This document shows positions 8,306 through 48,151 of a stretch of DNA of 64,000 nucleotides, piece after piece; position 1 is the first letter of the stretch, and each line of letters starts with the position of its first letter. The DNA is taken from positions 160,001 to 224,000 of the forward strand of contig CAVXEP010000029.1 in assembly GCA_963760795.1 (NCBI GenBank), given 5' to 3'. The notes under the pieces are model-generated. The model saw only the letters and a program-made list of their open reading frames with translations. It did not search any database and was not told the DNA's origin. A program made the translations under genes and the position numbers. The DNA is from an uncultured delta proteobacterium (GTDB lineage Bacteria; Desulfobacterota; Binatia; UBA9968).

Positions 8306-8699
8306 CTGACTTGCAGCACTAATACGAGGATAAAAACACCTGGCGTCACATATTTGCAAACAAACGCTGCCTTTCATCGCGAATCTGGGACATGAATAGA
8401 GATGCTGCTGCTCAATGTCATCTATAAAGATGCCGGCAGCTATTTCTATTTCTTGAGGAGTCATTTCACGACGATTAAGTCGCTACGACGAATTCCTTCG
8501 GATGAACTATCCCCCTTGCATAACCATGAGAGACTATCCTCTGCCTTTTACCATCCCGGGGCGACCAGGTGCTGTTGAAGGATCGCTGTTCTTGCTGTGC
8601 GAGTATTCCCAGGCATCACATCTGCGGCACAGCAATCGCAAATCAATGGGGCAACTCGGATTGTCGGTTAATTCCTTTCAGGTAACTAGGAATAATACT

Positions 8700-9100
8700 T
8701 CCCTCGATTCCGCCGGCTGCTACCACCGAACAAAAGTCCAACAAGTTCGAAGGCATTATTTTTCATTGCGCTCGAGGAGATTCGGCTCTCGATGTGGATC
8801 GAAGAGGAGGTGCAAAAGCGTTTCGGTTCGAAACGACAAGCTAAGGAAGAAATTCTCGCCCGCTACACCAGCTTAATCTATATGGGAAACGGCCAGTACG
8901 GGTTTGCCAGCGCAGCGCAATACTATTTTGGCCGGCCGCTGGCGAGGTTCACCGCCAATGACGCCGACCAGGCGGCGCTACTCGCCTGGCATCGCCAAGC
9001 GCCGCGTTACTACGCGCCCATCCCGATGGATACGCAGCGAGTGCTGCGCCGCCGAAATCAAACCCTACGACTGATGGCCGCCAGCCGTGCAATACGAACC
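8700..9100 (+). pseudogene. Fragment of a GT51 transglycosylase (class A PBP)
   Basis: KEEILARY...IYMGNGQYGFASAAQYYFG motif; both termini missing or frameshifted. Confidence 0.65.
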
Positions 9101-9418
9101 GTCGCGGAAAGGAAAAATAACATTGGGAGCGAAAAGGTTGCTGGTCTCCGATCTATAGAGGCTGTGGAGTACTACGTGAACTTTTTGTCAAAGCACCGCA
9201 AGGGGCATTAACGTTTGCCGAAACCGAAGAGCGGTTTGTTGGCAAGTAGCGACAAGGGATTGTTTGCTTATAGGAATCATCTACGCGAGCTTGCGCATGG
9301 TCATGCGCCGATACCCGCGCCGGCGCAGTCGGTGTGCCGGCCACAACAGGCTTGAATGAAAACCGCAGTGGTACCAAGATCCCGACACTATTGAAATTTT
9401 TCGCTCGACTTAAAAAGT

Positions 9419-9433
9419 TGGTCTCAAAATTGC
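9419..9433 (+). promoter_or_regulatory. Candidate sigma54 -24/-12 element
   Basis: TGGTCTCAAAATTGC, 16 bp before ATG 9450. Confidence 0.5.
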
Positions 9434-9449
9434 CTTCTCTGGACCCATT

Positions 9450-9884
9450 ATGACATTTTTAGAATCTACCCGATTTGATCAGACCGAACAGACCATAAAC
9501 CGGATCTTCCAGCCCGACCCGCTTACCCCGTACGATTATCTTAGGACCTCGCGGCGATCGGTGCACCTGGAACCGGAGAAACATTTGATGCATGCGATTC
9601 TGGAGGAAGCGATCAAGACATACCGCTTGCATGTTTCGACCAAATCCAAGCGCGAGCATAGGCTGTTTCTAGAAGCGGAACTCTGGATTATGGACCGTAA
9701 CGATGATTGGCTGTTTTCATTTGAAAATCTATGCGAGGTCTTGGGTTTAGATCCCGATTTCGTGCGCAGTGGCTTGGCTCGTTGGAAAGAACAGCAGGTC
9801 GGCCCTGCGGTGGTGCGGAAGACGCCACGTTACCGGGATCGAAGCGCGCGCCAGAGATCTGCGATAAAGCCTGCTTCCCCATAG
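9450..9884 (+). CDS. Hypothetical protein (EPEKxLMxAILEEAI...WLFSFENLCEVLGLDP family)
   Basis: Coherent 144-aa ORF with a helical, possibly HTH-like C-terminal motif. Confidence 0.75.
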   Translation: MTFLESTRFDQTEQTINRIFQPDPLTPYDYLRTSRRSVHLEPEKHLMHAILEEAIKTYRLHVSTKSKREHRLFLEAELWIMDRNDDWLFSFENLCEVLGLDPDFVRSGLARWKEQQVGPAVVRKTPRYRDRSARQRSAIKPASP

Positions 9885-9943
9885 GGCGTAGCTAAATAGC
9901 GGCTTGATTCAGCAATCGTCTTTTGATTATCTACATCTTGCAC

Positions 9944-9990
9944 GTCCCAAAATTGGGACAGCGGTAATTCAATCGTCCTGTAAATGAGAC
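9944..9990. promoter_or_regulatory. Tandem 16-bp enhancer-like palindromes
   Basis: GTCCCAAAATTGGGAC (9944-9959) and GTCCTGTAAATGAGAC (9975-9990), 31-bp period. Confidence 0.75.
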
Positions 9991-10031
9991 AGAGCGTTAG
10001 GTAAAGTCGTTATAAATTGCCGTCTCATTTT

Positions 10032-10046
10032 TGGCACGTGGATTGC
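10032..10046 (+). promoter_or_regulatory. sigma54 -24/-12 element of the bEBP gene
   Basis: TGGCACGTGGATTGC, a match to the TGGCACG-N4-TTGC consensus. Confidence 0.85.
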
Positions 10047-10080
10047 CCCTAACGACCCTATAGTTACAGGAGAGAGGGTT

Positions 10081-11440
10081 ATGCAAGGTAATATTCTAGT
10101 TGCCGAAGATGAATTGTTGCCGAGAAAAAATATCTGCCGGGTTCTTGAAGACGAGGGATATCAGGTTCATGAAGCCGCCGACGGGAGCGCGGCTATAGAA
10201 GCAGTCGACAAAAATGATTTAGATTTAATTCTTCTGGATTTAAAGATGCCGGGCGCCGACGGCATGACGGTGCTCAAGCATGTGCGACAAGCATCGCCGC
10301 AGACTCTAGTGCTGATCATGACCGCTTACGCCTCCATCGAAACCTCGGTTGAGGCGCTTCGCCTAGGCGCGCAGGATTATATCCTTAAACCAATCGTGCT
10401 CGATGGCGTGGTGAAGAAAGTGCGCACTTTGATGGAGAATAAGCGGCTTGCTTGGGAAATCCAAACCCTGCGTCGACAACTCAACCGCGACTTCGAGACC
10501 ACCGAATTGATCGGAAATAGCCTCGCCACTGCGGAAATTCTCGAGGTGATCGAGAAAGTGGCGCCGACCAACTCGACCGTTTTGATTAGTGGCGAGAGCG
10601 GTGTCGGAAAAGAGGTGGTGGCTCGCACCATTCATAAGCAAAGCACGCGCAGCGACAAAACTTTTCTGGCGGTTAACTGCAGCGCGATCCCGGAAACCCT
10701 GCTGGAAAGCCAACTCTTTGGTCACGTTAAGGGTGCTTTTACCGGTGCCTCGAATTATCAGGAGGGCTTATTTCAGCGCGCCAACGGCGGAACTATTTTC
10801 TTGGATGAGATCGGCGAGATGCCGCTCATTTTGCAGCCGAAAATTTTGCGCGCCATTGAAGAAAGAGCGGTAACACCCATCGGCGCGGCCAAGCCGCTAC
10901 CAGTCGATGTGCGGATCATTGCCGCGACCAATCGGACGCTAAAGCAAGAAGTCGACGAAGGAAAGTTTCGCGGCGACCTATATTACCGCTTGAACGTCAT
11001 TCACCTTGATGTCCCGCCGCTGCGTGAGCGGCGTGAAGACATCCCGCTGCTGGTCGAACACTTCATCCGGCGCCAGAATAGCGAGCTCAAGAAAAACTAC
11101 CAGGGCGTGGAAAGCAGTGCGTTGAAAGGTCCTCATGTCGCTGCCATGGAAAGGAAACATTCGCGATCTTAATAACGTGCTCGAGCGCGCCATGATTCTC
11201 GGCAATGGAGACTGGATCACGGTCAAAGATCTGCCGCGCTGGGAAGTGCCCGAGGAAGATGCCGACCGCGCCGTCGGCCACGGCCATGATCTCAGGCGAA
11301 CGGTTCGCGCCTTTGAAAAAAGTCATATTGAAAATGTTCTGAAGGAAACCGACGGGGACCGGACCCAGACCGCTGAATTGCTCGGCCTGAGCCGCTCGTC
11401 TTTATATCGCAAACTCGAAGCATTAGGGATTGAATCTTAG
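10081..11440 (+). CDS. NtrC/AtoC-family sigma54-dependent response regulator (REC-AAA+-Fis HTH); +1 frameshift near 11127
   Basis: REC LLDLKMP, Walker A GESGVGKE, GAFTGA, FLDEIGE, FRGDLYYRLNV; continues as PWKGNIRDL and HTH TAELLGLSRSSLYRKL in the +1 frame. Confidence 0.92.
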
Positions 11441-11689: not shown

Positions 11690-11893
11690 TTACCTCTCTA
11701 CCTTATCCACCCAATCGGCGACGCGGCGTTCCGCCTCATCTTTGCTCAGGCCGTATCTTTCCTGGACCTTGCCGATCAATTGATCCCGTTTGCCGGCGAT
11801 CCGATCAAGCTCGTCATCGGTGAGTTCGCCCCAATTTTCCTTGATCTTACCCTTCATCTGTTTCCACTGCCCCGAAATCGTGTCCCAATTCAT
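11690..11893 (-). CDS. csbD: CsbD/YjbJ general stress protein
   Basis: MNWDTISGQWKQMKGKIKENWGELTDDEL...GKVQERYG; RBS GGAGG. Confidence 0.93.
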   Translation of the reverse strand: MNWDTISGQWKQMKGKIKENWGELTDDELDRIAGKRDQLIGKVQERYGLSKDEAERRVADWVDKVER

Positions 11894-11936
11894 AAACTAC
11901 CTCCACAAAGAAATTTGCTAACGAATCGCTATAAGA

Positions 11937-11951
11937 GCAAAAGATATGCCC
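11937..11951 (-). promoter_or_regulatory. sigma54 -24/-12 element
   Basis: GGGCATATCTTTTGC; box pair at 11992-12007 and 12023-12038, 31-bp period. Confidence 0.7.
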
Positions 11952-12047
11952 GCAGCCAATGTGACATGACCTATGGAGATGGACATCATTAATCGCAAGT
12001 TTAGGACAGGAGGAAATGCGATGTTTCTGCCTTGGGACAAATGCGCT

Positions 12048-13846: not shown

Positions 13847-13909
13847 TTCTTGCTCCTTTCGTTTTGCACTAAATTTTTACTTAGCACACTGTTTTTAAAT
13901 TCGATAAAA

Positions 13910-13924
13910 GCAACCGTCGTGCCA
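13910..13924 (-). promoter_or_regulatory. sigma54 -24/-12 element
   Basis: TGGCACGACGGTTGC, a consensus match. Confidence 0.85.
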
Positions 13925-14460: not shown

Positions 14461-15033
14461 GACTGCTCCCACGAGAAAGAGAGCGGCTAAAATAAATTTA
14501 CAGACCGCTAACAGAGGAGCAAAAATACCACCGCGGCATGGCGACAAATCGCAATTATAAAATAAATACTTTTCAACTACGAAGCCAATATTGTCCCGCA
14601 AACGGTGAAAAAGGTGAGACGATGTGTAGGCGTTAAGACAGAACCTGGAATCAGCGTGGCATGTTTCACGAACCCCAAAATATGCTTTTCACGTCCTGAA
14701 ATTGGCACAACAGATTTGATTATGTCTTATTATTGGAACAGAACATCTTTTTTAAGTGATCAAAACGTTTTTCAACTATGCGTGTTTTCGTGCATTTGTA
14801 ATTTTTCATTTCATGATTAACCCGTCGCACTGTCGATCAAACTTCTCGCTATGACAGTTAGAAGACTTCGTCGCAAGCGTAAGGTGCGGCAGCCTTTGAA
14901 TCGCAGGATGGGGCTTCACTGGCTCGGGGTTGGGCCCCGATGCCACCGTGGGGATTGAGGCGTCCCCCGCGATTTACCTCAGTGTGATCATGGTTAAGAA
15001 CTAATAGTTAAATAAATCAGACGGTGAGAGTTA

Positions 15034-15069
15034 GTCCCGTTTTTGCGACGGCGATCCCTACTTTGAGAC
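15034..15069. promoter_or_regulatory. Tandem 16-bp enhancer-like boxes
   Basis: GTCCCGTTTTTGCGAC and ATCCCTACTTTGAGAC, 20-bp period. Confidence 0.6.
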
Positions 15070-15201: not shown

Positions 15202-15216
15202 TGGCATGCTGTTTGC
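15202..15216 (+). promoter_or_regulatory. sigma54 -24/-12 element
   Basis: TGGCATGCTGTTTGC. Confidence 0.8.
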
Positions 15217-15261
15217 GGTAATTACGATCAAATTCAAGGACGAACATGCGGAGGATATAAC

Positions 15262-16541: not shown

Positions 16542-17072
16542 ATGCACATGCCGAACGCAATTCAAATGGTTAAACAGGACCACAAGAAGGTTGCAAACCT
16601 GTTCGACAAATACAAACACACTAAGAAAGAAGAAGCCAAACGGCGGATTGCCGAACAAGCCATGGAACAGTTGGAGGTTCATGCCTTGGTGGAAGAGGAC
16701 ATCTTTTATCCTGCGGTCAAAAAAGCACTAGGAGACGGAGCGTTAATTCACGATGCGCTTAAAGAACATCAGGTGATCAAAGAGTTGATCGAAGAACTCA
16801 AGATTATCGAGGATTACGATGAGGATTTCGAAGAGAAATGGTCTGAACTCGTAGAAAACGTTCAAAATCATGTCAACGAAGAGGAGAGCGACCTCTTGCT
16901 GCAGGCTGAAGAAAGCGAACTTGATCTTGTTAACTGCGGCGCACTGATGACAGAGCGCAAAGAAAAGGCGATCGAGGAAATTGGCGCCAGCTCAATGGCC
17001 CATACTGGAAAATTACGTCCCGGCTCGAGATCGAAAAACTCGACAAAACACTCAGAAAGCCGGCACGCATAG
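16542..17072 (+). CDS. Hemerythrin-like HHE cation-binding protein
   Basis: KQDH, LEVHALVEEDIFYP, EH, HVNEEE motifs. Confidence 0.88.
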   Translation: MHMPNAIQMVKQDHKKVANLFDKYKHTKKEEAKRRIAEQAMEQLEVHALVEEDIFYPAVKKALGDGALIHDALKEHQVIKELIEELKIIEDYDEDFEEKWSELVENVQNHVNEEESDLLLQAEESELDLVNCGALMTERKEKAIEEIGASSMAHTGKLRPGSRSKNSTKHSESRHA

Positions 17073-17433
17073 TTCAGTCCGATCCCCAATCCCACGGGTG
17101 TTCGCCAGCGCGCAGATCATACTTCGCAGTCACGCGGCAGAACGCGCGCTGGCGGCCTGTCGTCAAAAACATAAAATCCTAGTGAAAAAGAAAAGCTCGG
17201 AACTGCGCGGCGATACTCACGGTCGCCGCGCATTCCGAAACCAGGAAGGTCGTTACACTCGGCCCATTAGAGCCAGAACGATGATGATTATAAGGACTAA
17301 TCCAAGGCCACCGCTGGGATAGTAGCCCCAGCCGCTGCTGTAAGGCCAACTGGGCAAAGCTCCTACTAATAGAAGAATTAAGACAATTATTAATACGGTT
17401 CCCATAGCGTTATCCTTTCCATTGTCGTGTAGG

Positions 17434-17580: not shown

Positions 17581-17772
17581 TTTCGATTTCTCGAACTGGC
17601 GATGGAGCAACACACATGCCAGTGCGATAGCGGAATTCACGACGCCCCATAGTTATTCACAGGGGGATATAGCGCATTGATGTCCCAAAACCGCGAAGGA
17701 GAGAAAGAAGCATTCCAAGCTTTGGGACACGGCGGGTTGTGTTCACACACTGTATGAAGGTGAATTATTATC

Positions 17773-17787
17773 TGGCATATGAGTTGC
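17773..17787 (+). promoter_or_regulatory. sigma54 -24/-12 element
   Basis: TGGCATATGAGTTGC; box pair at 17682-17697 and 17713-17728, 31-bp period. Confidence 0.8.
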
Positions 17788-17849
17788 GTTGAGTCGCGGT
17801 GAATAGTTAAAAGACATCGACAAAAATATTGGAGTCGCTGGAGGTTCTT

Positions 17850-18187
17850 ATGGATTATGCAGAAGGTGTTGCTCAAGGCAGAATGGGTCGTAGGGAAGAT
17901 GAGCGGGACGACATCGGCCGCAAAGTAAGCAATGCGGCTTCTGAAGTGCGCGCCGGGATCACTAATTTCGTCGACGGCAGTTAAGCAAAAAATACCAAGC
18001 TGATGCGGTTCGCAAGATGAGTGATACCGCGTGCGAAGTCACCGATCAGGTCAGGGGATACATCGAGGATCGCGGAATCCGGGGATTGACGGATGATGTT
18101 ACCGATTTGATTCGCCGCTATCCGATGCCTGCTTTGTTATGTGGAGTCCTGATCGGTGTGTTATTGGCGCGTCCACGGGGAGATTAA
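17850..18187 (+). CDS. ElaB/YqjD-like tail-anchored membrane protein (not in the ORF track; two +1 frameshifts)
   Basis: GGAGG RBS; repaired translation ends DVTDLIRRYPMPALLCGVLIGVLLARPRGD; 338-2 = 336 nt. Confidence 0.7.
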
Positions 18188-18189
18188 CC

Positions 18190-18642
18190 ATGGCTGCATT
18201 GAAGCCTACACCCGATCACGCCAGTTGGTCCGACCTGATCGCGGGAATTGTGACAGATGCAACGCAGCTGTTTCACAAAGAGGTCGAACTGGCCCGACTA
18301 GAGATTGGTAATGATTTACGTAACGTCAAAGCGCTGCTAACGGGAATCGTAATTGGTGGGATACTCGCAGTTTTAGGTTTAGGCTTGCTTTGCGTTGGGT
18401 TGGCGTTGGCACTTTTTACCTATACGACATTGCCGCAATGGGCTTGCTTCGCTGTGGTTGGCGGAGCGATGCTGGTGGCCGGCGTCTGCTTTATTGCCGC
18501 GGCTAACCGAAGCAAAAAGAAAGTCGATCTAATTCCTCAGCGGACCGTTGAGGCTGTGAAGGAGGATATCGGATGGATCACATCGACAATCAGGACATCG
18601 AACGCAATCTCAAAGACCGCGAACAAACTCGAAAGGCGCTAA
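18190..18642 (+). CDS. YqjE-like 'phage holin superfamily III' membrane protein
   Basis: LFHKEVELARLE, two TM helices, P.RTVEAVKED.W. Confidence 0.85.
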   Translation: MAALKPTPDHASWSDLIAGIVTDATQLFHKEVELARLEIGNDLRNVKALLTGIVIGGILAVLGLGLLCVGLALALFTYTTLPQWACFAVVGGAMLVAGVCFIAAANRSKKKVDLIPQRTVEAVKEDIGWITSTIRTSNAISKTANKLERR

Positions 18643-19130
18643 CGCAAAAGTTAGAGACGCTGGAGACACGTATGCAGGACAATATCGAGCAAGTTAAAGA
18701 GTCGGTGCGACATAGCACAGATTTAAAATACCAAGTGGGCAAGCGTCCCTGGGTAATGTTTGGTTTATCAATAGTGTTGGGTGGTGTGGCCGGGCGCCTG
18801 TTCATGGGTAATCGTCAATCGTTAAGTGCGCGCTCGCGCTCGGAAATCGAGGATATCCTACACAAAGCGAGCGACGCATCAAGCAAAAGCTTTCAAACCT
18901 TGGCCGACAATGTAAACCTCGACCAGTACGCTAAGCATTTTAGTCTAATTAAGAACGCCTCCATAGGCGCGATGACTTCGCTTGCCGTCGAATTGGCCCG
19001 TCGTGTCGTGCCCGCCATCCTAACCCAAATCGATAAGTACTCTAAAAGCACAAACCTCAACAACACCACCGAGAAGGTTCGAGAAGCGGACGAGCAATTA
19101 CAAGATCGATTCAGAACCTCGGTTCAGTAA
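18573..19130 (+). CDS. DUF3618/YqjK-like protein
   Basis: IE...EQTR..L..KLETLE coiled coil; RPWVMFGLSIVLG TM segment; RBS AGGAGG. Confidence 0.7.
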   Translation: MDHIDNQDIERNLKDREQTRKALTQKLETLETRMQDNIEQVKESVRHSTDLKYQVGKRPWVMFGLSIVLGGVAGRLFMGNRQSLSARSRSEIEDILHKASDASSKSFQTLADNVNLDQYAKHFSLIKNASIGAMTSLAVELARRVVPAILTQIDKYSKSTNLNNTTEKVREADEQLQDRFRTSVQ

Positions 19131-19227
19131 GTTCGTGATCTGGTCAAAGCTTTCGCGTGGGTCTTAGCAGAAAAGCGCACCCAATGGGGAAAGCGTCCAG
19201 AGTTTGCGAACCAGTGCAGTGTCGCAT

Positions 19228-19242
19228 CGGCAAACCCCTTGC
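19228..19242 (+). promoter_or_regulatory. Candidate sigma54 -24/-12 element
   Basis: CGGCAAACCCCTTGC; degenerate box at 19195-19210. Confidence 0.55.
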
Positions 19243-21249: not shown

Positions 21250-21264
21250 TGGTACGAAGTTTGC
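21250..21264 (+). promoter_or_regulatory. sigma54 -24/-12 element
   Basis: TGGTACGAAGTTTGC. Confidence 0.7.
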
Positions 21265-21370
21265 TGACATTAAACTCAGAGGAATGATCCAATCGACGAG
21301 ATAATGGGAAAATTTTACCAATCGCGTCTTCGGGATTTTCTACCGACGACGGCCAAGCGAAAGTAAATAA

Positions 21371-22107: not shown

Positions 22108-22260
22108 TCAATCGATCGATTTCGTCGCCAAGCGACTCATAAAGTCGGCAATCCGCTCATAATGCTCTTCGAGTTTCACTCGTTGATCGATGTCGCGCAT
22201 GAGTTCGGCGTGCGCCCGCCCAGAGACTTCGTACGTTCGGCAACTCTTTGCTCTACTCCG
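22108..22260 (-). pseudogene. Sensor-kinase signalling-helix remnant
   Basis: VEQRVAERT..., then frameshifted AHAELMRDIDQRVKLEE. Confidence 0.45.
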
Positions 22261-22674
22261 ATCGAGGCGGCACAATTGGTCGTCGGTACTAGACGCAACG
22301 GGCCGATATCGCCGCCGATCGCTTTGCGCTCCAGACGATTATTCGTGAAACAGTAGGGGAGTTGCGAGCGCGATGCCCGTCGGCGCCAGAACGTGGATGC
22401 GCTCGGATGGAGCAAGGCGTGGGCTAAACCGAATTTACCCGCAAAGAAGTAATTGCTGCAAGCAGACCGAACAGTGCATAATGGTCGAGATTGCGCCGCT
22501 GTCTGCTCATGGAGACAACCTCTATGCCGTTGGTCCACAAAAGGCGGTCGCACAACCGACGTAAGTTAGTCCACCGGCGGGGTTTGTTTTACCAGAGACG
22601 GACAGACTTTAACTTCCAGATTTGAGAGCAAACCCAATGGCATTACGACCGAAAATCGACGTTCTGGGTGTGGT

Positions 22675-22690
22675 GTCCCAAAATTGTGAC
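22675..22690. promoter_or_regulatory. Single near-perfect 16-bp box upstream of the hybrid kinase
   Basis: GTCCCAAAATTGTGAC, one mismatch from the 9944 copy. Confidence 0.6.
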
Positions 22691-22825: not shown

Positions 22826-25663
22826 ATGAAGCCCCAAACATCGATCAAGCTGCGCTGGCATCTAATAGTGCTGATAGTCGCCACATTGGTGCCGATGCTG
22901 ATTTTCGCAGCTATTCTGATGCAGCGTGAAATCAAACAGCAGCAGGAAAATGTCGACCGTGGCATGCGCCATACCGCCCGGGCGCTTTCCCTTGCCGTGG
23001 ACCGCGAAATCTCAAGCGCGCGGGCAGTGCTGGATACACTTGAAGGCTCGCAGTCTATCGACGAACGCAATTTTCCACGGTTTTATCGGTTGGCTGCGGC
23101 CGCCGCGGCGAAACGTCAAGGTTCGCGTGTCATTCTTTTCGCTCTCGATGGTCAACAGCTTGTCAACACCGCTAGACCTTTAGGCGATTCGCTGCCCAAT
23201 CCTTTTCAGGAAGGACAGCCGGAAGGGAAAAATCCCGTTTATCCCGATCTCCCTATCGGTGGAAATGCTCATCTGAAGCAAATTATCGAAACCGGCCAGC
23301 CCACACTTTCCGATGTGTTTATCACCTTAACCAACCGGCGACCCGAGATCTCGATTGGAGTGCCGGTCAAGCGCAACAACAAGATTCTTTACATTCTAGA
23401 TATAGTTTTCGAGTTGGGAACATTTACTAGATTGCTGCTGGAAGAAGGGATACCCGCAGGCTCGGAAGGAGTGATCATCGACCGCCAGGGAGTTATCGTC
23501 ACTCATACCAAGGCTCCGGAGCGGTTTATTGGCCGGCGCGCGGCGGCGCCGCTACTCGAGCAGATGGCCAAGTTGGATGAGGGAGTCGCGATCACGCAGA
23601 GTCCGACAGACGCATCGACCGCGCTCTATTTTGTTCGATCAAATTCAACCGGGTGGAGCACCGGTATCGGTGTTTCGCAAGCGGCGGCGCACGCGGCGCT
23701 CAATCGCACTTTTTATTTACTGATTGGCGGCGCGGCACTGTTGCTGTTGTTAAGTCTGGCGGCCGCGCTATTTCTAGGCAGACGGCTGACCAGCTCCCTC
23801 GCCCGGCTGGCTCATTCGGCGGAAGCGATTCAGCACGGTGAGCCGATCGCACTCAAACGCTCTACGGTTTATGAGATCGATGAATTACATCGCCAATTGG
23901 TTCAAGCCGGAACCCTGGCGCGACAAAGCTTTCAGGATCGCCGATTGCGCATTGAGGCCGAAGCGCAGCGGGCTGCGGCCGAGGCAGCGCGAAGTGAAAT
24001 CCTCGAACGTGAAGCAAAATTGCAAGAAAGCGAGGAACGCTTGCGTGCCTTTCTCGAAAACAGCGCGACGATTGCGTGGATGGTCGACGAAGAGGGGCGC
24101 TATGTTTATCTGAGCCGTAATTATCTGAAGCATTTCGATCTCGGTGCGCGACAATGGCAGGGCAAGACCGTCTTCGATTTGTGGCCGGCGGCGGTCGCCG
24201 AGAAGCTGCGTCAATCAGATTTGGCGGTGCTTGCCCATGGCGGACTGCAAGAGGAGATTGAGCAGACGAAAAATCCCGATGGCAGCCGCTCATGGTGGTT
24301 CAATTCCCGATTCGTGCTCACAGATCGTTCGGGCAAACGCTATGTTGGTAGTCTGGCGGTCGATATCACCGAGCGCAATCGGCTCCAAGAAGAACTCGAG
24401 CAGCGCGTCGCCGAGCTGAAAGAAGCCGACCGGCGCAAGGATGAATTTTTAGCGGTGCTATCGCATGAGTTAAGAAATCCGCTGGCACCGATTGCCAATG
24501 CCGTGCAGATTCTAAAAACGCTCGATGCCGCGGATCCGAAGCTGCGCTGGTGCCGCGACTTGATCGATCAGCAAATCAATTTGATGGCCCGCTTGATGGA
24601 AGATCTGCTCGACGTCAGCCGAATCACCCGAGGGCGATTACCGTTGCGTAAGCAGTTGGTGGAGCTGGGCCCGGTGGCTGAGGACGCGCTACAAATAAGC
24701 CGGCCGCTCATCGAAGCCCGTGGGCATAAGCTAACGGTCGATCTGCCGGCGGAAAGATTGATGCTTGACGGCGACCCGGCGCGGCTGACGCAAGTGTTTG
24801 CAAATTTATTGAACAACGCCGCCAAGTACATGGAAGGCAGCGGCGAGATTCGCTTTACAGCGAGGCTCGAGAGAGCCCTCACTCTCGTCCCCTTCGACGA
24901 GTTCAGGATAGGTTCTGCCGTCGCGGGCGAGAATGGGCGAACAGAAGCCGCGAGAGTAGAGACGGCGAGAAGCAACGAAGTCATCATTTCGGTCAAAGAC
25001 AACGGCATCGGCCTCGCGCCGGAACAACTGCCGCATATATTCGACATGTTTTTTCAGGTCGATACCGGCAGAGATCGCCACTACGATGGCTTGGGTATTG
25101 GACTGACTCTGGCGCGCAACTTGATCGAGCTGCATGGCGGCACGATTGAGGCGAGGAGCGAGGGGCTCGGAAAGGGCAGCGAGTTTATCATGCATTTGCC
25201 GGTGGCGAGGGTCGATGCCGTTTCAGCGGCAAGCGAGCGGGCGGCGCATCAACCACCGGCAGCATTGCCTGGCAAACGTATCGCCGTGGTGGACGACAAT
25301 AAGCTGCAGGCGCGATCCATGGCGATACTGCTCGAGGTGATGGGTTACCAGGTGAAGACCGCCCATGATGGCGAGAGCGCGATTCGCATGATCGCGGAGT
25401 TTGTCCCGCAAGTGGCACTCATCGACATCGGTTTGCCGGGATTAAACGGTTATGAACTGGCGCGTCGGTTGCTCGCGTTGCCGCAAGTAAACGGCATCAC
25501 GCTGATCGCGCAGACCGGTTGGGGACGGGATGAAGACCGGGAGTTATCGCGCCAAGCCGGTTTCCAGCATCATCTTCTCAAGCCGATCGATCGCCGGCTA
25601 CTGGAGGAGCTCCTGGGCGAGATTCTTGGTTCAACGTCGACTGAGTCGATTATCTCGCAGTAG
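22826..25663 (+). CDS. Membrane hybrid sensor histidine kinase (Cache-like periplasmic domain, PAS, HisKA, HATPase, REC)
   Basis: Two TMs; SHELRNPL H-box; NLLNNAAKY; DNGIG; GLGIGL; REC LIDIGLPG. Confidence 0.92.
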   Translation: MKPQTSIKLRWHLIVLIVATLVPMLIFAAILMQREIKQQQENVDRGMRHTARALSLAVDREISSARAVLDTLEGSQSIDERNFPRFYRLAAAAAAKRQGSRVILFALDGQQLVNTARPLGDSLPNPFQEGQPEGKNPVYPDLPIGGNAHLKQIIETGQPTLSDVFITLTNRRPEISIGVPVKRNNKILYILDIVFELGTFTRLLLEEGIPAGSEGVIIDRQGVIVTHTKAPERFIGRRAAAPLLEQMAKLDEGVAITQSPTDASTALYFVRSNSTGWSTGIGVSQAAAHAALNRTFYLLIGGAALLLLLSLAAALFLGRRLTSSLARLAHSAEAIQHGEPIALKRSTVYEIDELHRQLVQAGTLARQSFQDRRLRIEAEAQRAAAEAARSEILEREAKLQESEERLRAFLENSATIAWMVDEEGRYVYLSRNYLKHFDLGARQWQGKTVFDLWPAAVAEKLRQSDLAVLAHGGLQEEIEQTKNPDGSRSWWFNSRFVLTDRSGKRYVGSLAVDITERNRLQEELEQRVAELKEADRRKDEFLAVLSHELRNPLAPIANAVQILKTLDAADPKLRWCRDLIDQQINLMARLMEDLLDVSRITRGRLPLRKQLVELGPVAEDALQISRPLIEARGHKLTVDLPAERLMLDGDPARLTQVFANLLNNAAKYMEGSGEIRFTARLERALTLVPFDEFRIGSAVAGENGRTEAARVETARSNEVIISVKDNGIGLAPEQLPHIFDMFFQVDTGRDRHYDGLGIGLTLARNLIELHGGTIEARSEGLGKGSEFIMHLPVARVDAVSAASERAAHQPPAALPGKRIAVVDDNKLQARSMAILLEVMGYQVKTAHDGESAIRMIAEFVPQVALIDIGLPGLNGYELARRLLALPQVNGITLIAQTGWGRDEDRELSRQAGFQHHLLKPIDRRLLEELLGEILGSTSTESIISQ

Positions 25664-29739: not shown

Positions 29740-29768
29740 AGAGTGGTCTCCTTCTGCTTAGAGTAAAA

Positions 29769-29783
29769 GCAATGAGGGTGCCA
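29769..29783 (-). promoter_or_regulatory. sigma54 -24/-12 element
   Basis: TGGCACCCTCATTGC. Confidence 0.8.
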
Positions 29784-30020
29784 AACCGGGTGTTGCAGGA
29801 ATGGTGGCTTCGATGAAATCAGCTAAGAATTTTTCCCAGGAGTCTGAATACTCGCGCTTAATAGAATTCAAAGCTCGCCGGTAGTCACTGGCGCGATCAG
29901 CTATCAATAAATAAATTCCCGAGGCCGGGTTTTCTGCTACAGTCGGCGCCCGCGCAGAACTGTCGCATTCGTCTCGAGGCGGTTAGAATCCCAATTCTAA
30001 GACATCAGCGGCGTATCAAC

Positions 30021-30035
30021 CGGAACAGCGATTGC
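30021..30035 (+). promoter_or_regulatory. sigma54 -24/-12 element
   Basis: CGGAACAGCGATTGC; box ATCCCAATTCTAAGAC at 29988-30003. Confidence 0.65.
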
Positions 30036-30067
30036 ACCAACTCTTCATAAATTATGGAGGTGCAATC

Positions 30068-37850: not shown

Positions 37851-37891
37851 AAGTCCCGTGAAAACATCAACATAATATTAGAAAATACTGA

Positions 37892-38084
37892 GCAAAGGCC
37901 GCGCCAGGTTAAGCGGCCGTCTATTTACTGCCTTTTGTCTTAGATGCGCGACGAAATTTCGCCGGCTGTCGCGAAACTGAGACGGGTCGATTGTTGCGGG
38001 TAAGTCGCGTAAGAGGAGTCTACTCTGGGCTCTTACCTTGTCGAAGCGTCGATCATTATCCAGCAGAAGTGGCATAAGGCTTGC
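37892..38084. promoter_or_regulatory. Divergent sigma54 promoters flanking a shared tandem box pair
   Basis: Minus TGGCGCGGCCTTTGC (37892-37906); boxes at 37937-37952 and 37968-37983; plus TGGCATAAGGCTTGC (38070-38084). Confidence 0.75.
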
Positions 38085-38138
38085 TGTTTCGAATGTTTAT
38101 GTAGGCAGCATATCCGGCGACTCCTGGCAGTAGAAACA

Positions 38139-38738: not shown

Positions 38739-38934
38739 ATTGCGCTCGCTTCCAACGACTCGGGAACGGAGGCCTTCGTCAATTCCAAATGTGAAAGTTT
38801 CGCTGAGGATTTTCCCGTGTTGATCGACTCGGGATCGGATTAGCCGTTGGCGGTCACAGTGCCGAGTTCAAGATTTGTTGCGCCCGTAAAATCAGCGTCC
38901 CGAACTTAATATAATTATCCGTGCAGTGTTGCAC

Positions 38935-38949
38935 AGGCAGGACGGTTGC
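38935..38949 (+). promoter_or_regulatory. Candidate sigma54 element
   Basis: AGGCAGGACGGTTGC. Confidence 0.55.
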
Positions 38950-39108
38950 TCACTTCGTTTTGAACGGCTTGCATGCGCTCAAAATTTACCCGTGACATAT
39001 CGTGCGCTGATTTACACCTATTCATGACGCAATTTACCGATTGGCAAGCGAACTCCAGTCGCCGGCCTGCAGGCCACCGAGCGCGCCGCGCCGCGAGTTT
39101 TACGACGT

Positions 39109-42097: not shown

Positions 42098-42157
42098 GCA
42101 CGTTTCCCCTTTCAATCAAAAATTATTCTAGCGTTGCGCTCTACAATAAGAGTAACC

Positions 42158-42172
42158 GCAAGGAGCATGCCA
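42158..42172 (-). promoter_or_regulatory. sigma54 -24/-12 element
   Basis: TGGCATGCTCCTTGC; boxes at 42224-42239 and 42256-42271, 32-bp period. Confidence 0.8.
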
Positions 42173-42467
42173 CGGGAATTTGTGGCTGGAACCGTTCATA
42201 CTCGGCGTTTCTTGCAATCAAGCGTCTTAATATTGCGAAAGCCCAAGCGATGGTTGTCCCAATTGAAAGACCGTGCGAAAGGGCTCCGGATTGGCAGTCG
42301 TTACCACCATGAGAGCAGATTCTCGTTTTACCGTGAGCTGAGGACAACAAGGGATGCGCTGGGGCTAATCGGAAAACCAAATCCAAGAGATAACGCGTGA
42401 CGTCTTGAATCTGAGACAACGCGCCGCGATGGATAGTCGCTGCTGGGCGCAAACCGCCGCAAATGTT

Positions 42468-42482
42468 TGGTTCTGCTTTTGC
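42468..42482 (+). promoter_or_regulatory. sigma54 -24/-12 element
   Basis: TGGTTCTGCTTTTGC; box GTCTTGAATCTGAGAC at 42402-42417. Confidence 0.65.
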
Positions 42483-42661
42483 TTTATCCACGGTCGGATT
42501 GCGAATTCCCTGATGAGAAAAAATTATTACCCCAGGTACCGCGGATACTAAAGATGGCGAAGCGACGATGAATTCGATCGCCGCCGCTGGCCGCTACACC
42601 AGGATGAGAGGGATCGTCTCTCTAAAATTACCAACGTGCGCAACAACGGAGGATAGTTAAA

Positions 42662-42950
42662 ATGGAAGCATACGGCACCTCAACGTATACCGGGCAACCG
42701 GCCAAAACTGAAGACCAATTTACCAAGGCGGTTGAAGATTACACAGCGGAGATTCCCTCCTCAGCCTATCTCGGCATTGCTCTCGGAGCGATGGGGCTGT
42801 CGCTCGTTTGTCAAGCGATGGGACAAGGCAAATGGGGCAACTTCATCGCCCAGTGGGTGCCGACTTGGTTGATCATCGGTGTCTACAACAAATTAGTAAA
42901 GCTCGAAGGGCACGATCAACAGCGATCGGGCCACGGGGTATTCGCACTGA
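42662..42950 (+). CDS. Conserved small membrane protein (NFIAQWVPTWLIIGVYNKLVK); probable +1 error near 42920
   Basis: RBS GGAGG; hydrophobic hairpin; the repaired stop at 42950 removes the overlap with the next gene. Confidence 0.7.
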
Positions 42951-42998
42951 GTTTTTGGCGCGGCGGCTGCATCTGCCCTATCGAAAGGCAGGACATTT

Positions 42999-43457
42999 AT
43001 GATACCGGCTACTACTTCTCGGGTTAATGAACATACCCCCGATCACATTAACGAACGCATCGCCCGCAAGACACAAGCAAACCTCGAATTTTACGGCTCG
43101 GCGGGCGGCGCATCGATTGCTCGCCGCCTAGCCGAGCTTGACCGTGAATGGGACATCGAACGCATGCTCGAAGCTAACGCGGCCTCGGCTGTGCTGTTAG
43201 GAATGTATTTGAGTATTACGCGTAGCCGCGGGTGGCTGCTGCTGCCAATGGCCGTCGGCGGATTCTTACTGCAGCATGCTGTCCAGGGATGGTGTCCACC
43301 CCTCATCTGGTTGCGCAGAATGGGTTTTCGAACCGCAAGCGAGATTGACCACGAGCGCTACGGCTTAAAAGTGCTGCGTGGCGACTTCGCGGATCTGGTA
43401 TCGGCCAGCCGTGAGTTGAGCGATGTACGCAACGTGCTGCACGTCGTTAAACAATAA
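42999..43457 (+). CDS. DUF2892/YgaP-like membrane protein
   Basis: LDREWDIER.LE.NA, LLQHAVQGWCPP. Confidence 0.75.
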   Translation: MIPATTSRVNEHTPDHINERIARKTQANLEFYGSAGGASIARRLAELDREWDIERMLEANAASAVLLGMYLSITRSRGWLLLPMAVGGFLLQHAVQGWCPPLIWLRRMGFRTASEIDHERYGLKVLRGDFADLVSASRELSDVRNVLHVVKQ

Positions 43458-44664: not shown

Positions 44665-44787
44665 AATCCAAGCTTGTGTTTGGTCTGTTGCAAAACCGGC
44701 ACGCATTCAATCGCTAGGAATCCTAATTCTAGGACGTGACGGCTATCGGCAAGAAATCTATTCCCGACAAAAAGTAACAATTATGAG

Positions 44788-44802
44788 TGGCACGTTAGTT
44801 GC
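44788..44802 (+). promoter_or_regulatory. sigma54 -24/-12 element
   Basis: TGGCACGTTAGTTGC, a consensus match; box ATCCTAATTCTAGGAC at 44720-44735. Confidence 0.85.
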
Positions 44803-44836
44803 GCTAAGCAGATTGCGATGGAAACAAGGAGGTAAA

Positions 44837-45224
44837 ATGAAAAGCATATCAATATTATTGTTTGCCGCATTACTCGCCGTCGGTTGTTCAAAAGAACGTG
44901 CCGACGAAAAAGTGGCTCAAACCCCCGCTCCGGATAATTCTGGGACGAATGTGCGAGACCGCAATGACCAAACCAAGACTGCCGGGAGATCAGTCGGAAA
45001 GCGAAGCCGATCGAACCATAAGCCAAAATATCCGGCAGTCGCTCACTTCGGACGATTCGCTTTCCACCAACGGCAAGAACGTTAAAGTGATTACGATCGA
45101 CGGCAAGGTGACGTTGCGCGGGCCGGTGAAGAGCGATCAAGAAAAAGCCGCCATCGCCGCTAAAGCCCAGCAAGTGGCCGGCGTCAAGAATGTCGATAAC
45201 CAATTAGAAATCGCAAGCAATTAA
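44837..45224 (+). CDS. BON-domain lipoprotein; +1 frameshift at ~44985
   Basis: Lipobox AVGC; DN+G.NVRDR...DQSE..ADR.I...NVKVITIDGKVTLRGPV; 388-1 = 387 nt. Confidence 0.85.
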
Positions 45225-45251
45225 CTTAACCAGTAACACCTAGGAGGATTT

Positions 45252-45811
45252 ATGGCAAAATCTGTATTTTGTTTAGTCGATAGCGAAACCCAGGCCGAAG
45301 CTATCGTAGATAATCTCAAGGCGGCAAATTTTTCCCACAACGATATTTCGGTGTTGTTTCCGGATAAATCCGGCACGCAGCGATTTTGCCCACGAACAAA
45401 ACACCAAAGCGCCCGAAGGCGCAGCAACGGGCGCCGGTACCGGCGGAGCGGTGGGCGGCGTTTTGGGTTGGTTGGTCGGCATCGGAACTCTGGCGATTCC
45501 TGGTGTCGGTCCATTCATCGCGGCCGGGCCAATCATGGCGGCATTGGCGGGCGCGGGTGTGGGTGCGGCGGTCGGCGGATTGACTGGCGCTCTGATCGGC
45601 ATGGGCATTCCGGAACTACGAAGCCAAGCAGTATGAAGGAAAAATTAAAGGCGGCAACATTCTCATTTCGGTTCATTCAGAGAACAGCGATGAGACAAAG
45701 CGCGCCAAAGAGATCTTCGAGCGATCCGGCGCTCATGACATTTCCTACACCGAAGAGGAAGGTGTCGCAAAAGAAGACAAAGCCCGACCTGCAGCAGGGT
45801 TTAGAAACTAA
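45252..45811 (+). CDS. General stress protein 17M/YflT-like glycine-zipper protein; two +1 frameshifts
   Basis: Repaired: DISVLFPDK..RDFAHE..TKAPEGA...IPGVGPFIAAGP...GIPEYEAK.YEGK; 560-2 = 558 nt. Confidence 0.8.
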
Positions 45812-45835
45812 CTGCGCGGAAGGATGGACAAGTCG

Positions 45836-45946
45836 ATGAAGTTATTACGCAACCAGACAGGAAAAGTCGGCTGGATCTTATTGTGGGCATTAGGAGTTCC
45901 AGTGCCAATTTTGGTTCTGCTATTTCTCATGCGCGGGTGCACGTAG
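45836..45946 (+). CDS. 36-aa TM microprotein MKLLRNQTGKVGWILLWALGVPVPILVLLFLMRGCT (not in the ORF track)
   Basis: Purine-rich RBS (GGAAGGA/TGGA); TM helix with a GxPxP kink; hairpin follows. Confidence 0.7.
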   Translation: MKLLRNQTGKVGWILLWALGVPVPILVLLFLMRGCT

Positions 45947-45996
45947 TCGGTCCTTTTCAACAGCGCTGATAGTTCGATTCCAGTAACAAGTTAATA

Positions 45997-46032
45997 CTGG
46001 CCGGCAGCCGGGGAAAGCAGGCTGCCGGCCAG
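45997..46032. terminator. 13-bp stem hairpin
   Basis: CTGGCCGGCAGCC...GGCTGCCGGCCAG. Confidence 0.55.
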
Positions 46033-46196
46033 CACAGTGATTCAGCAGAATTCCATCAATCCGAAGTCGAAAATGAGCGAGCAAGACATAATCCAGGGCG
46101 AAGTACGTTGTGAGGGGCGCGACCTTCGCTAACGGGCGGTTGCACTCTCAATAATCCGCGGCTACGCAGCTGGTTGTTAAAATAAATATAACATGT

Positions 46197-48078
46197 ATGA
46201 ACAAAACCCGTGTGCGTGCCGTTGCGGCTATCGGACGCACTGCCAAATTCCCTTTATCGGTCCTGCCTGGGCTCGTTCTAGTTATCGCTTCGCTGTATTG
46301 GGCCCAAACGTTTCTCATTCCCCTGGCTCTTTCCTTGTTATTGACGTTTCTCTTGACTCCGCTGGTAGCGGGTTTGGAAAAATTCGGCTTGAGGCGCGTG
46401 CCCTCCGTTATAATTGTAGTGCTTTTTGTTTTTTCGTTGCTTGGCGCCATCGCTTGGATCGTTGCCGTGCAATTTACCAGCGTGGCCAATCAGCTGCCCC
46501 GATATCAAAGCTAATATCCGGCAGAAAATTGTCGACATCCGCGGTGCCGGTAAAGGCGGAGCATTGGAGAAGGTAAAGGAAACCGCAAAGGAAGTTACCG
46601 AGGAGTTGAAGCAAGAACCGAGCGCGCTCCAGAAGCCCCGCGAAGTGGTGGTTCAGGGCGATGAAGCTACGACTTTTTGGCCGTTCTCACCGGTGGCAGC
46701 TCCTATGTTAGAGCGCATGGCCGGCGCGGGATTTGTCATCGTCTTGACTGTCTTTATGCTGATTCGGCGTGAGAATCTGCGCAACCGTTTGATCCACCTA
46801 CTGGGCTATGGCCGCTTAACCGTCACGACCAGAGCGATGGAAGAAGCCGGGCAGCGCATCAGCCGTTATCTGATCGTTCAGTCGCTGCTCAATGGTTCGT
46901 TCGGCATAGCCGTTGGCGGCGCGCTATTTTTTTTCGGTCTGCCCTACGCTATTCTCTGGGGATTTTTAGCGGCGTTGCTGCGCTTTATTCCCTACATCGG
47001 TTCATGGGCGGCGGCGATTCTGCCTACAGCTCTGGCGTCTAGCCGTGTTTCAAGGTTGGCTTTGGCCGTTGCTGGTTTTCGCAACGATCGTCGGCTTGGA
47101 AATTGTCATTGCCACGATTCTCGAACCTTTGCTGTACGGCGAAAGCGCCGGTGTGTCCGAGGTGGGCATGCTCGTGTCTGTGGCGTTTTGGACCTGGCTC
47201 TGGGGTCCGGTTGGACTGCTACTCGCCATGCCGCTAACGGTCTGTGTGGTCGTAATCGCCAAATATATGCCGCCGATGGAATTTATCGGCGTGTTGTTGA
47301 GCGATGGGTCGTTTCTCGAGCCGGCTATAGGTTACTATCAACGTTTGCTCGCCGCGGATCGCGCTGAAGCGAAGGCAATCGTCGCAGCGTATGCCGAGAA
47401 ACATTCCCCGGCGCAGGTTTATGACGACCTGATGGTGCCGGCGCTTGGTCACGCCAAACGGGATTTGTTGCAGGGCAATGTAACGGAAGCTGAACTACAG
47501 TTTGTTTGGCAGACGACACGCGAAATCCTCGCCGAGCCGATATTCGATAATCCAGGTCGAAACAGCGGCGGCTAATGGCAATTCATCGGTCAATCCCAAA
47601 CCCGAGCTTTCTCTGACTAAACTGCGAATAATCGGTTGTCCAGCCAGAGACGAGTCTGACGAGCTTGGCTTGGTCATGCTCAGCCAATTGCTCGATCGCA
47701 AGCGATTCGATGTGGAGATTGTCGGCGCAGCGACAGCTGACCTCGGAGATTTTAGCGCGAACTGCCGAGACCAACGCGCCGCTGCTCTGCATTGCCTCGC
47801 TATCGCCGGACGGGTTGCCGCACACTCGAGCGCTGTGCAAGCGGGTGCGGCGGCGGTTTCCCGAAATCAAAATACTCATTGGGCGGTTGGGTAACGGCAC
47901 GACTAACACCGATGATCTAATGGCGGCCGGAGCCGATAAAATCAGCACAACTATGATTGAATTCCGCGATCAGGTGGCGCAGATGAGTCAAGTTATTGTG
48001 CCTGAAGTTTACGATGGCGAAAACTCTCACCGCGAAGTCGAAACAACAAATCATCCCGATCGTGAGACATTCATGTGA
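46197..48078 (+). CDS. Second AI-2E family transporter with the same C-terminal module; four successive +1 frameshifts
   Basis: Fragments 46197, 46426, 47045, 47502 and 47665 are collinear with the paralog at 19325; 1882-4 = 1878 nt. Confidence 0.8.
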
Positions 48079-48151
48079 TTCTGTTTCTCACCGTTGCAAC
48101 GCCGCATTGAGCCGGTCGAAAACAGGTTAGCAATAACCCGCGAGCGCAGGG

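Follow-up and report, generated by a model that had tools for sequence, protein, structure and literature searches.

Which protein, if any, reads a 16-bp palindrome that recurs between the genes of an uncultured delta proteobacterium? The question is raised by a 64,000-nucleotide stretch of DNA (the window; positions 160001 to 224000 of contig C29 in the assembly of the source genome, G000), where copies of this palindrome, here called boxes, often stand in tandem. The answer developed below is that the boxes are probably the upstream activator sequences, that is, the predicted operator, of one response regulator of the NtrC family, the product of the gene that starts at 10081. A preliminary description of the locus had proposed the same assignment, which now has computational support of four kinds: the best pair of boxes lies at the regulator's own promoter, the pair is conserved, the helix-turn-helix (HTH) of the regulator is the only one of its type in the genome, and the type of box matches the type of recognition helix among relatives (11/11 versus 13/13). 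The G000 assembly (6.58 Mb, 35 contigs, 57% G+C, 88.9% completeness) contains one rpoN gene and 26 genes for bacterial enhancer-binding proteins (bEBPs).

A palindromic motif in non-coding DNA

The motif was searched for without using the consensus of the preliminary description, in 29 non-coding segments of window positions 6900-48200 (10.2 kb) left by a crude coding mask (open reading frames, ORFs, of at least 90 amino acids). A hard expectation-maximization (EM) procedure with a fixed number of sites, seeking a palindromic 16-mer, returned GTCCCAAATTTGGGAC at 13.05 bits, compared with 10.94±0.16 bits in 12 dinucleotide shuffles, so that the motif stands above shuffled DNA. Written out, the consensus is (y)GTCCCAA-N2-TTGGGAC(r) with the core GTCCCA-N4-TGGGAC, a dyad-symmetric site of the length (~15-17 bp) of NtrC-family enhancers. 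Soft EM with a zero-order background had collapsed onto AT-rich DNA, and hard EM was used instead. A strict dyad analysis (4-mer, N0-14, 4-mer) did not recover the degenerate palindrome, which is invisible to exact words; it returned only the sigma-54 promoter (GCAA-N6-TGCC, 10 versus 0.92) and TGTCCCAA (6 versus 0.29). A literature search for the arm sequences gave primer lists only.

The motif is concentrated in the non-coding DNA of the island, as the boxed part of the contig is called here. TTGGGACA occurs there in 6 copies (0.59/kb), versus 0.03/kb in the non-coding DNA of the remaining genome, a difference of about 20-fold. Matches to the de novo matrix at 13 bits or more are distributed as follows.

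Island non-coding DNA: 1.37/kb
Island coding DNA: 0.065/kb
Other non-coding DNA: 0.042/kb
Other coding DNA: 0.014/kb

Island non-coding DNA is thus enriched about 30-fold over other non-coding DNA and about 20-fold over island coding DNA, and the boxes are not equally frequent in coding sequence. Genome-wide counts of single boxes with 2 mismatches do not separate from a reversed-pattern control (157 versus 187), so at the scale of the genome only pairs separate the signal.

All 23 positions listed in the preliminary description carry the sequences ascribed to them. Its consensus, GTCYCA-N4-TGRGAC, describes a real motif and is too strict, being matched exactly once only (at 9944). With up to two mismatches it has 17 matches, versus 5.27±2.14 in 100 shuffles, none of which reached 17; 13 of the 23 listed copies are among them, and 17 of the 23 score at least 9 bits with the de novo matrix. 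That several copies are degenerate is borne out by six that score at background: 48085 (0.7 bits), 31072 (3.1), 12023 (4.7), 7022 (6.7), 8345 (7.7) and 17713 (8.3). Such scores equal those of sequences that occur every 0.2-4 kb. Some of these copies keep one perfect arm at the exact pair distance.

Recurrence without a binding function, through duplicated promoter modules, composition or chance, is a very improbable explanation for these boxes. The six of 23 listed copies at background level agree with it. The shuffles, which fall short of the observed information content, and the avoidance of coding DNA argue against it, and further evidence on both sides is given below.

The regulator and its own promoter

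The features at the regulator gene are these.

9944-9959: box GTCCCAAAATTGGGAC, a perfect palindrome, 22.2 bits
9975-9990: box GTCCTGTAAATGAGAC, 14.0 bits, 31 bp from the first; together the best pair, before the regulator's promoter
10022-10037: third box GTCTCATTTTTGGCAC, 16.5 bits, its right arm formed by the -24 element (TGGCAC); absent from the preliminary description
10032-10047 (+): sigma-54 promoter of the regulator, TGGCACGTGGATTGCC
10081..11440 (+): regulator gene, with a receiver domain, a sigma-54 AAA+ domain carrying GAFTGA, and a Fis-type HTH_8

From the best pair, the one with the sole perfect palindrome, it is 41 bp downstream to the -24 element of the regulator's -24/-12 promoter. 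Pfam matches to Response_reg (5e-29), Sigma54_activat (3e-70) and HTH_8 (4e-15) give the product the architecture of the NtrC family, and an intact orthologue of 452 amino acids shows both GAFTGA and the DLKMPG motif of the receiver. All NCBIfam equivalog scores are below their cut-offs (score/cut-off: AtoC 465/714, NtrC 400/558.6, ZraR 387/760, NtrX 383/600, GlrR 343/763). Because the NtrC score is 400 bits against an equivalog cut-off of 558.6 bits, the regulator is not NtrC itself.

The third box is kept in four close relatives and is recognisable, with more mismatches, in a relative whose regulator is 76% identical; it is not recognisable in the 64% clade. It may be an autoregulatory brake on the regulator's promoter.

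The regulator stretch is also present in public sequencing runs. In a rhizosphere metatranscriptome library, a contig of 1411 nt spans window 10010-11421, the regulator gene, with 16 differing letters, and 8 of the 20 runs with the stretch are recorded as RNA. Since contigs show no transcription start and DNA is possible in such libraries, these contigs indicate presence rather than transcription.

Paired boxes at a fixed spacing

The rule for calling pairs gives 33 of them genome-wide, 20 in C29:166-330 kb. The pairs run from window 8345 to G000:C29:324,570, over about 157 kb and some 100 kb past the end of the window, and strong matrix matches extend along the contig up to about C29:324,600. 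The feature that the preliminary description had bounded at 8345..48100 continues past both 48100 and the window end.

A spacing of about three helical turns, claimed from the window, recurs in DNA on which the matrix was not trained: in C29:208-330 kb, almost wholly outside the window, 11 of the 13 pairs formed at a threshold of 8 bits and start-to-start spacings of 10-60 bp are 31, 32 or 33 bp apart. Within the window 6 of 10 pairs at the 8-bit threshold are at 31-33 bp, and in the remaining genome four pairs are spaced by 31 bp, with no case of 32 or 33. The boxes thus present two or more in-phase sites per promoter at a fixed spacing. The individual spacings given earlier (31, 32 and 20 bp) are right. 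Two entries were missing from the list, the pair 14693/14724 (31 bp) and the partner 44687 of box 44720 (33 bp), and of 48053/48085 the second box, at 0.7 bits, is no better than background. A spacing of 31-33 bp that is fixed in independent DNA further argues against recurrence without function. On the other side, the boxed promoters at G000:C29:225519 (-) and 234364 (+), both outside the window, have visibly similar 50-bp spacers, which indicates that at least one promoter module has been duplicated in the region.

Outside the island, a pair at G000:C5:92665-92711 precedes a weak GG...GC site (TGGTATCATATGTGCT) by 39 bp, in front of a second CsbD-like gene, and is a possible outlying member of the regulon.

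Position relative to sigma-54 promoters

Promoters were called as TGGCAC-N5-TTGCW with at most 2 mismatches, in the right orientation and within 130 bp of a pair. By this rule 14 of the 20 island pairs face a GG...GC promoter, in contrast to 147 of 4000 random non-coding positions (3.7%), 68 of 720 island non-coding positions (9.4%) and 1 of the 13 pairs outside the island. The pairs therefore lie upstream of -24/-12 sigma-54 promoters far more often than the controls.

The gap was taken from each GG/GC promoter to the closest box that scores 9 bits or more and lies 15-135 bp upstream, which gave 26 island cases: 17, 17, 22, 26, 30, 40, 40, 41, 50, 50, 50, 51, 52, 55, 57, 60, 60, 70, 71, 75, 83, 86, 91, 94, 95 and 132 bp. 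Their periodicity is moderate (Rayleigh R 0.42-0.43 at 10.5-11 bp, p ~0.008-0.011, n=26, uncorrected for the ten periods tried); 26 box-promoter cases outside the island give R 0.21-0.24. A curated list of 19 gaps, its members chosen by the author, gives R 0.52 at 10.5 bp. The two distance classes of the preliminary description are present as clusters at 39-44 and 50-52 bp, accompanied by further gaps at 30, 55-60, 71 and 83-94 bp; they are the two most populated of several in-phase classes.

Taking the GG at -25/-24, arithmetic from the gaps puts the centres of proximal boxes at about -65 to -95 and those of distal boxes at about -96 to -127. The boxes had been described as closer to the promoter than classical enhancers. 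This holds against glnAp2 of E. coli, where two strong NtrC dimer sites lie 32 bp apart at -140 and -108 (PMC5159524). It is not unusual more widely, because most Desulfovibrio vulgaris promoters lie within 100 nt of the nearest enhancer-binding protein (EBP) site (PMC4641369) and NtrC-like regulators mostly act from sites no further than 100 bp from that of sigma-54 (PMC11841059). Sites resembling those of integration host factor (IHF) are not enriched in 19 spacers (1 versus 1.3±1.2).

The positions of some boxes raise the idea that they act mainly negatively, with unphosphorylated regulator or a separate repressor stiffening or occluding promoter-proximal DNA and activation coming from solution or from elsewhere. 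Boxes 19195, 29988 and 37937 are only 17-30 bp from the -24, too close for an activator ring to reach the promoter, and the conserved third box overlaps the -24 of the regulator's promoter. By analogy, low-affinity NtrC sites repress at high concentration (PMC5159524). A mainly negative role is nonetheless quite unlikely. For most pairs the distance upstream of the -24 is 39-60 bp, with helical phasing, which is the geometry of activating sites such as S1/S2 of NmpR from Myxococcus xanthus. Moreover, since a sigma-54 promoter is inactive until an activator works on it, some 20 of them would have no need of a repressor operator of their own.

Conservation of the pair

Close relatives of the regulator come from metagenome-assembled genomes labelled "uncultured delta proteobacterium", "Thermodesulfobacteriota bacterium" and "Candidatus Binatia bacterium". 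Upstream of orthologues that are 97, 94, 94, 91 and 76% identical, conservation falls on the box arms, on the -24/-12 element and on the ribosome-binding region, and hardly anything else upstream of the regulator aligns in the 76% relative.

A second genome, G003, has 100 kb syntenic with C29:166-255 kb, with a detectable pair for 7 of 11 G000 pairs. Across the 7 aligned pair regions, identity is 151/168 (90%) in the arms, a figure that is inflated because the G003 sites were picked by the same matrix, and 39/56 (70%) in the inner N4, 54/108 (50%) between the boxes and 870/1540 (56%) in the flanks. The arms are thus kept while the sequence between boxes and in the flanks is unrelated, which again argues against duplication or chance as the source of the boxes. 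In a scan of 41 genomes for the pair pattern (forward/control, N15+N16), G000 has 14/2, G003 18/2 and G019 13/4; the two other families are at background. G004 was also among the genomes scanned and bears on no conclusion here.

The pair remains beside the regulator gene also in more distant relatives with other neighbouring genes. In L019 (76% identity; 2300-2580) and in G017 (64%; L032:10440-10700, G017:C40), it lies between divergent sigma-54 promoters. The divergent promoter is 79-80 bp from the pair and faces the gene for 2-oxoglutarate dehydrogenase E1 (sucA), which in G017 is followed by that for E2 (sucB). A tblastn search of G000 with the G017 protein gave no sucA match, and with the assembly 89% complete its absence is not established. 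The location of the pair between the regulator and sucA promoters in L019 and G017, together with the lack of a tblastn match to sucA in G000, raises the possibility that the large stress regulon is an expansion specific to the lineage, with the operator left unchanged.

Recognition helix and box type

The regulator HTH (LGLSRSSLYRK; window 11252-11437) is the sole one of its type in G000, as judged by tblastn with the last 62 residues. The next-best HTH, that of a paralogue on contig C3, is 51% identical.

Helix and box were compared in relatives 59-92% identical to the intact G019 orthologue, by searching the 260 nt before each gene for GTCCYR-N4-YRGGAC or TTYGCA-N4-TGCRAA with at most 2 mismatches. 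The 11 relatives with the helix SRSSLYRK, from three clades, have a GTCC-type box in 11/11 and a TTYGCA-type box in 0/11. The 13 paralogues with SLSTLYRK (LGLSLSTLYRK) have TTYGCA-N4-TGCRAA in 13/13 and the GTCC type in 0/13. Because the genomes are kin, this agreement represents about one or two evolutionary events and not 24.

The SLSTLYRK clade consists of G000:C3:49771-50811 (-) and 12 further loci (L010-L014, L041, L043-L045, L047-L049), with 59-61% identity in the four members measured. At several of these loci, including that of G000, the TTYGCA boxes are paired and stand about 62 and 32 bp ahead of the start codon. The G000 pair is downstream of the promoter-like TGGCCTGTGATTTGCT, directly after a histidine kinase gene. 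Such a downstream location would suit a mainly negative role.

The boxes could also be a real operator of another protein, either one of the other 25 sigma-54 activators or a regulator that is not a bEBP, with the 10081 regulator merely a target. Two more response-regulator bEBPs are encoded in the region, at G000:C29:322362 and 328689; they have an unrelated C-terminal HTH (AGKYRADFYDLLKKHG), however, of which near-identical copies occur elsewhere in the genome. The genomes G002, G011, G016 and G024 exceed the pair-pattern controls, and the SRSS-type regulator was not found in their assemblies. In G011 and G016 a receiver-less bEBP has an intermediate helix, SLSSLYRK. These points are outweighed by the box type, which follows the regulator's own recognition helix in 24/24 loci, and by the persistence of the pair at the regulator gene beside different neighbours, sucA in L019 and G017 and stress genes in G000. 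Another owner of the boxes is therefore unlikely.

Weighing the assignment to the 10081 regulator

Beyond the kinship of the genomes and the inflated arm identity, several observations weigh against the 10081 regulator as the protein that reads the boxes. Its gene is frame-shifted in this assembly, being split into 10081-11172 and 11135-11440. Alignment with G019 and G003 traces the split to one extra A at 11125-11128, in TTGAAAGG; the orthologues are open for 452 amino acids, and in contigs of 4/4 public runs, each from a different study and comprising one RNA library and three runs taken to be DNA, there is one base fewer at 11125 or 11128. The likely cause is an assembly error or else a private indel, and the gene of the population is intact.

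Since window sites served to train the matrix, its scores within the window are in part circular. Six of the 20 island pairs lack a canonical promoter, and perfect sigma-54 promoters without a box are found at 13924 (-) and 29783 (-) in the window and at 251979 (-) and 311720 (+) on the contig. Because several perfect promoters have no box, other activators presumably also act in the region. The four G000/G003 intervals in which no G003 pair was detected hold single matches only, of 9.4-19.3 bits. Pairs are in excess (forward/control, N15+N16) in G002 (8/0), G011 (9/0), G016 (3/0) and G024 (6/1), and a search of these fragmented assemblies found no SRSS-type regulator. Finally, 80 kb around the 64%-identical G017 orthologue, scanned with the G000 matrix, holds the autoregulatory pair only.

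Two side observations concern these same subjects. Loci L052 (G011:C100) and L053 (G016:C562) have a 315-residue open frame for a receiver-less bEBP with a GSFTGA loop and the helix SLSSLYRK. The window also has sigma-54 promoters at or near consensus that lack a convincing GTCC box upstream, at 13909-13924 (-), 29768-29783 (-), 21250-21265 (+) and 52795-52810 (+); such promoters are presumably served by other activators.

A proposed model for the regulator at the boxed promoters

From the motif, its pairing, its position at promoters, its conservation and its co-variation with the recognition helix, we infer a scheme of binding, control by phosphorylation, looping and activation. A dimer of the regulator would bind each 16-bp dyad through its Fis-type HTH, and since two dyads 31-33 bp apart are separated by three helical turns, two dimers would lie on the same face of the DNA. 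Phosphorylation of the receiver by a kinase, perhaps one of the hybrid kinases encoded in the island, would then allow the dimers to nucleate an AAA+ ring. Through a short DNA loop, the ring would touch the sigma-54 holoenzyme at the -24/-12 element 30-95 bp downstream, and the promoter would open. The regulator would activate its own promoter in this way, together with a predicted set of about 20 or more promoters across about 157 kb that serve stress and dormancy functions. Among the predicted target products are Dps, BON, hemerythrin, CsbD-like, HSP20 and CBS proteins, M48 peptidases, trehalose/glycogen enzymes, the PLD-type lipid enzyme and topoisomerase IB.

Boxes and promoters in the window

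Besides those of the regulator, the boxes of the window and their promoters are listed here, with the gap for each promoter where there is one.

8290-8305 (-): promoter; boxes 8345-8360 (weak, 7.7 bits) and 8376-8391 (16.8 bits), gap 39; fronts genes 7630-8247 and 7184-7615, function unassigned
11936-11951 (-): promoter; boxes 11992-12007 (16.6 bits) and 12023-12038 (4.7 bits, with a perfect TTGGGAC arm), gap 40; fronts CsbD/YjbJ-like stress protein gene 11690-11893 (PRK10428, 97 bits versus a cut-off of 113)
14693-14739: pair of boxes 14693 (16.9 bits) and 14724 (13.9 bits), 31 bp apart; no canonical -24/-12 beside the pair
15034-15049 (17.4 bits) and 15054-15069 (12.4 bits): boxes at an atypical 20-bp offset; promoter-like site 15202-15217 (+), gap 132; fronts Dps-like ferritin, BON and hemerythrin genes
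17606-17621 (-) and 17773-17788 (+): divergent promoters sharing boxes 17682-17697 (14.0 bits) and 17713-17728 (8.3 bits), gaps 60 and 44; on the (+) side small ORFs and a holin-X-family membrane protein
19195-19210: single weak box (9.4 bits), 17 bp from a poor promoter-like site at 19228; before an AI-2E transporter gene
22675-22690: strong single box (18.2 bits) between gene 22176-22553 (-) and a hybrid histidine kinase operon at 22826 (+); no canonical promoter found at this box
29988-30003: single box (17.0 bits), 17 bp upstream of promoter-like site 30021-30036 (+); before a small ORF
37891-37906 (-) and 38070-38085 (+): divergent promoters sharing boxes 37937-37952 (10.6 bits) and 37968-37983 (16.9 bits), gaps 30 and 86; on the (-) side a PLD-type phospholipase/cardiolipin-synthase-like gene and a DUF748 gene; pair conserved in G003
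38859 (11.8 bits) and 38897 (12.9 bits): boxes 38 bp apart; weak promoter-like site 38935 (+); before glycogen-debranching gene 39109
42157-42172 (-): promoter; boxes 42224-42239 (15.4 bits) and 42256-42271 (10.3 bits), 32 bp apart, gap 51; fronts a peptidoglycan-binding-domain protein gene; site conserved in G003
42402-42417: single box (16.2 bits); promoter-like site 42468-42483 (+), gap 50; before 42662, 42999 and topoisomerase IB gene 43461
44687-44702 (11.2 bits) and 44720-44735 (16.4 bits): boxes 33 bp apart; promoter 44788-44803 (+), gap 52; before a small secreted-looking ORF
48053-48068: box (11.6 bits); promoter 48152-48167 (+); before trehalose/glycogen genes 48185 and 50207

Two of these are doubtful members of the regulon: the box at 19195, whose score of 9.4 bits occurs about once per 7 kb, and the arrangement at 38859..38950.

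Gene content of the region

Genes of the window encode a Dps-like ferritin, a BON protein, a hemerythrin, a CsbD/YjbJ-like protein, a holin-X-family protein, an AI-2E transporter, two hybrid histidine kinases (at 22826 and 26795), a catalase, a DUF748 protein, a PLD-type enzyme, a glycogen-debranching enzyme, topoisomerase IB and trehalose/glycogen enzymes. Past the window, G000:C29:224001-335000 (L021-L026) encodes two HSP20s, a hemerythrin, two aa3-type oxidase clusters, alternative complex III, Ku, LigD, BON and FtsH, together with KaiC/KaiB and a hybrid kinase, a CBS protein, HtrA-type proteases, NDH-2, superoxide dismutase, M48 peptidases and the two response-regulator bEBPs. This region beyond the window looks like a dormancy and oxygen-stress neighbourhood. 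Only part of the region's genes have a box.

An integrase-core (rve) fragment at window 6294-6878 (-) lies at the left edge of the boxed region and adjoins an IclR regulator gene (5064-5924). Overlapping pairs or triplets of ORFs in different frames are found at window 8502-9211, 16542-17322, 18139-19130, 42662-43457 and 46193-47575, examples being a transglycosylase fragment and an AI-2E transporter fragment. These split ORFs may reflect further single-base assembly errors like that in the regulator gene.

No RpoS equivalog scores above its cut-off in this 89%-complete assembly. A literature search for a sigma-54 general-stress regulon with such gene content found nothing relevant, and one for Binatota or Binatia together with sigma-54, RpoN or NtrC found nothing on gene regulation in Binatia.

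Relation to known systems

The mechanism itself, in which an NtrC-type activator uses tandem dyads, is textbook; the organism and the target sequence are new. NtrC at glnAp2 has the same domain architecture, tandem sites three turns apart and weaker sites nearer the promoter, and its two sites nucleate a hexamer that loops to the sigma-54 holoenzyme (PMC5159524), both steps that are proposed here. Unlike those of glnAp2, the present boxes lie one to four helical turns nearer the promoter and have a different consensus, and the predicted regulon concerns stress survival rather than nitrogen assimilation.

The closest studied analogue is the regulon of NmpR. This NtrC-like protein recognizes two GCGCA-N5-TGCGC sites per promoter, separated by 14-15 bp, and controls its own gene. 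It activates CBS, USP and oxidase genes (7 promoters, 23 genes), with binding and activation established by electrophoretic mobility shift assays and reporters (PMC11841059). The two systems share a response regulator, dyad sites paired upstream of sigma-54 promoters (with a separation of 15-17 bp here), an autoregulatory position, and CBS-domain, stress and respiratory genes of a soil bacterium. They differ in the motif, which here is GTCCCA-N4-TGGGAC and not GCGCA-N5-TGCGC, and in scale and content, with about 20 pairs over about 157 kb and general-stress genes (Dps, trehalose, HSP20).

In Desulfovibrio vulgaris Hildenborough, EBP regulons were likewise derived from palindromic sites by comparative genomics with autoregulated EBP genes as anchors (PMC4641369). 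The lineage and the motifs are different, and among the regulons in the available parts of that study none has the present motif or gene content.

The response regulator GlrR/QseF recognizes TGTCN10GACA at glmY/glmZ, where several sites serve each sigma-54 promoter and IHF is needed (PMC3045617). As in that operator, outer arms GTC/GAC stand ten bases apart in the present motif and are nearly invariant. Unlike it, the flanking T/A is present in only 25/62 half-sites, the inner CCA/TGG is specific to the present motif, and the spacers show no enrichment of IHF-like sites.

Implications for Binatia

A broader proposal, which is offered tentatively and is possible rather than probable, is that a single sigma-54/NtrC-type regulator governs, as its master switch, a general-stress and dormancy programme in this Binatia lineage, in the role played elsewhere by sigma-S, sigma-B or EcfG. 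Such a programme could have been built from a small ancestral circuit by lineage-specific spread of box pairs, with a short, phased and apparently IHF-free distance to the promoter as its design rule. It would then be one more case in which "general stress" genes are wired through sigma-54 instead of a stress sigma factor, and the link of the regulator to 2-oxoglutarate dehydrogenase in relatives would provide a natural example of a regulon that expands while its operator stays unchanged. For the Binatia, which are widespread and uncultured, the analysis yields an operator sequence, a candidate master regulator and a list of target promoters, and a stress-survival programme of this kind may explain persistence in soil.

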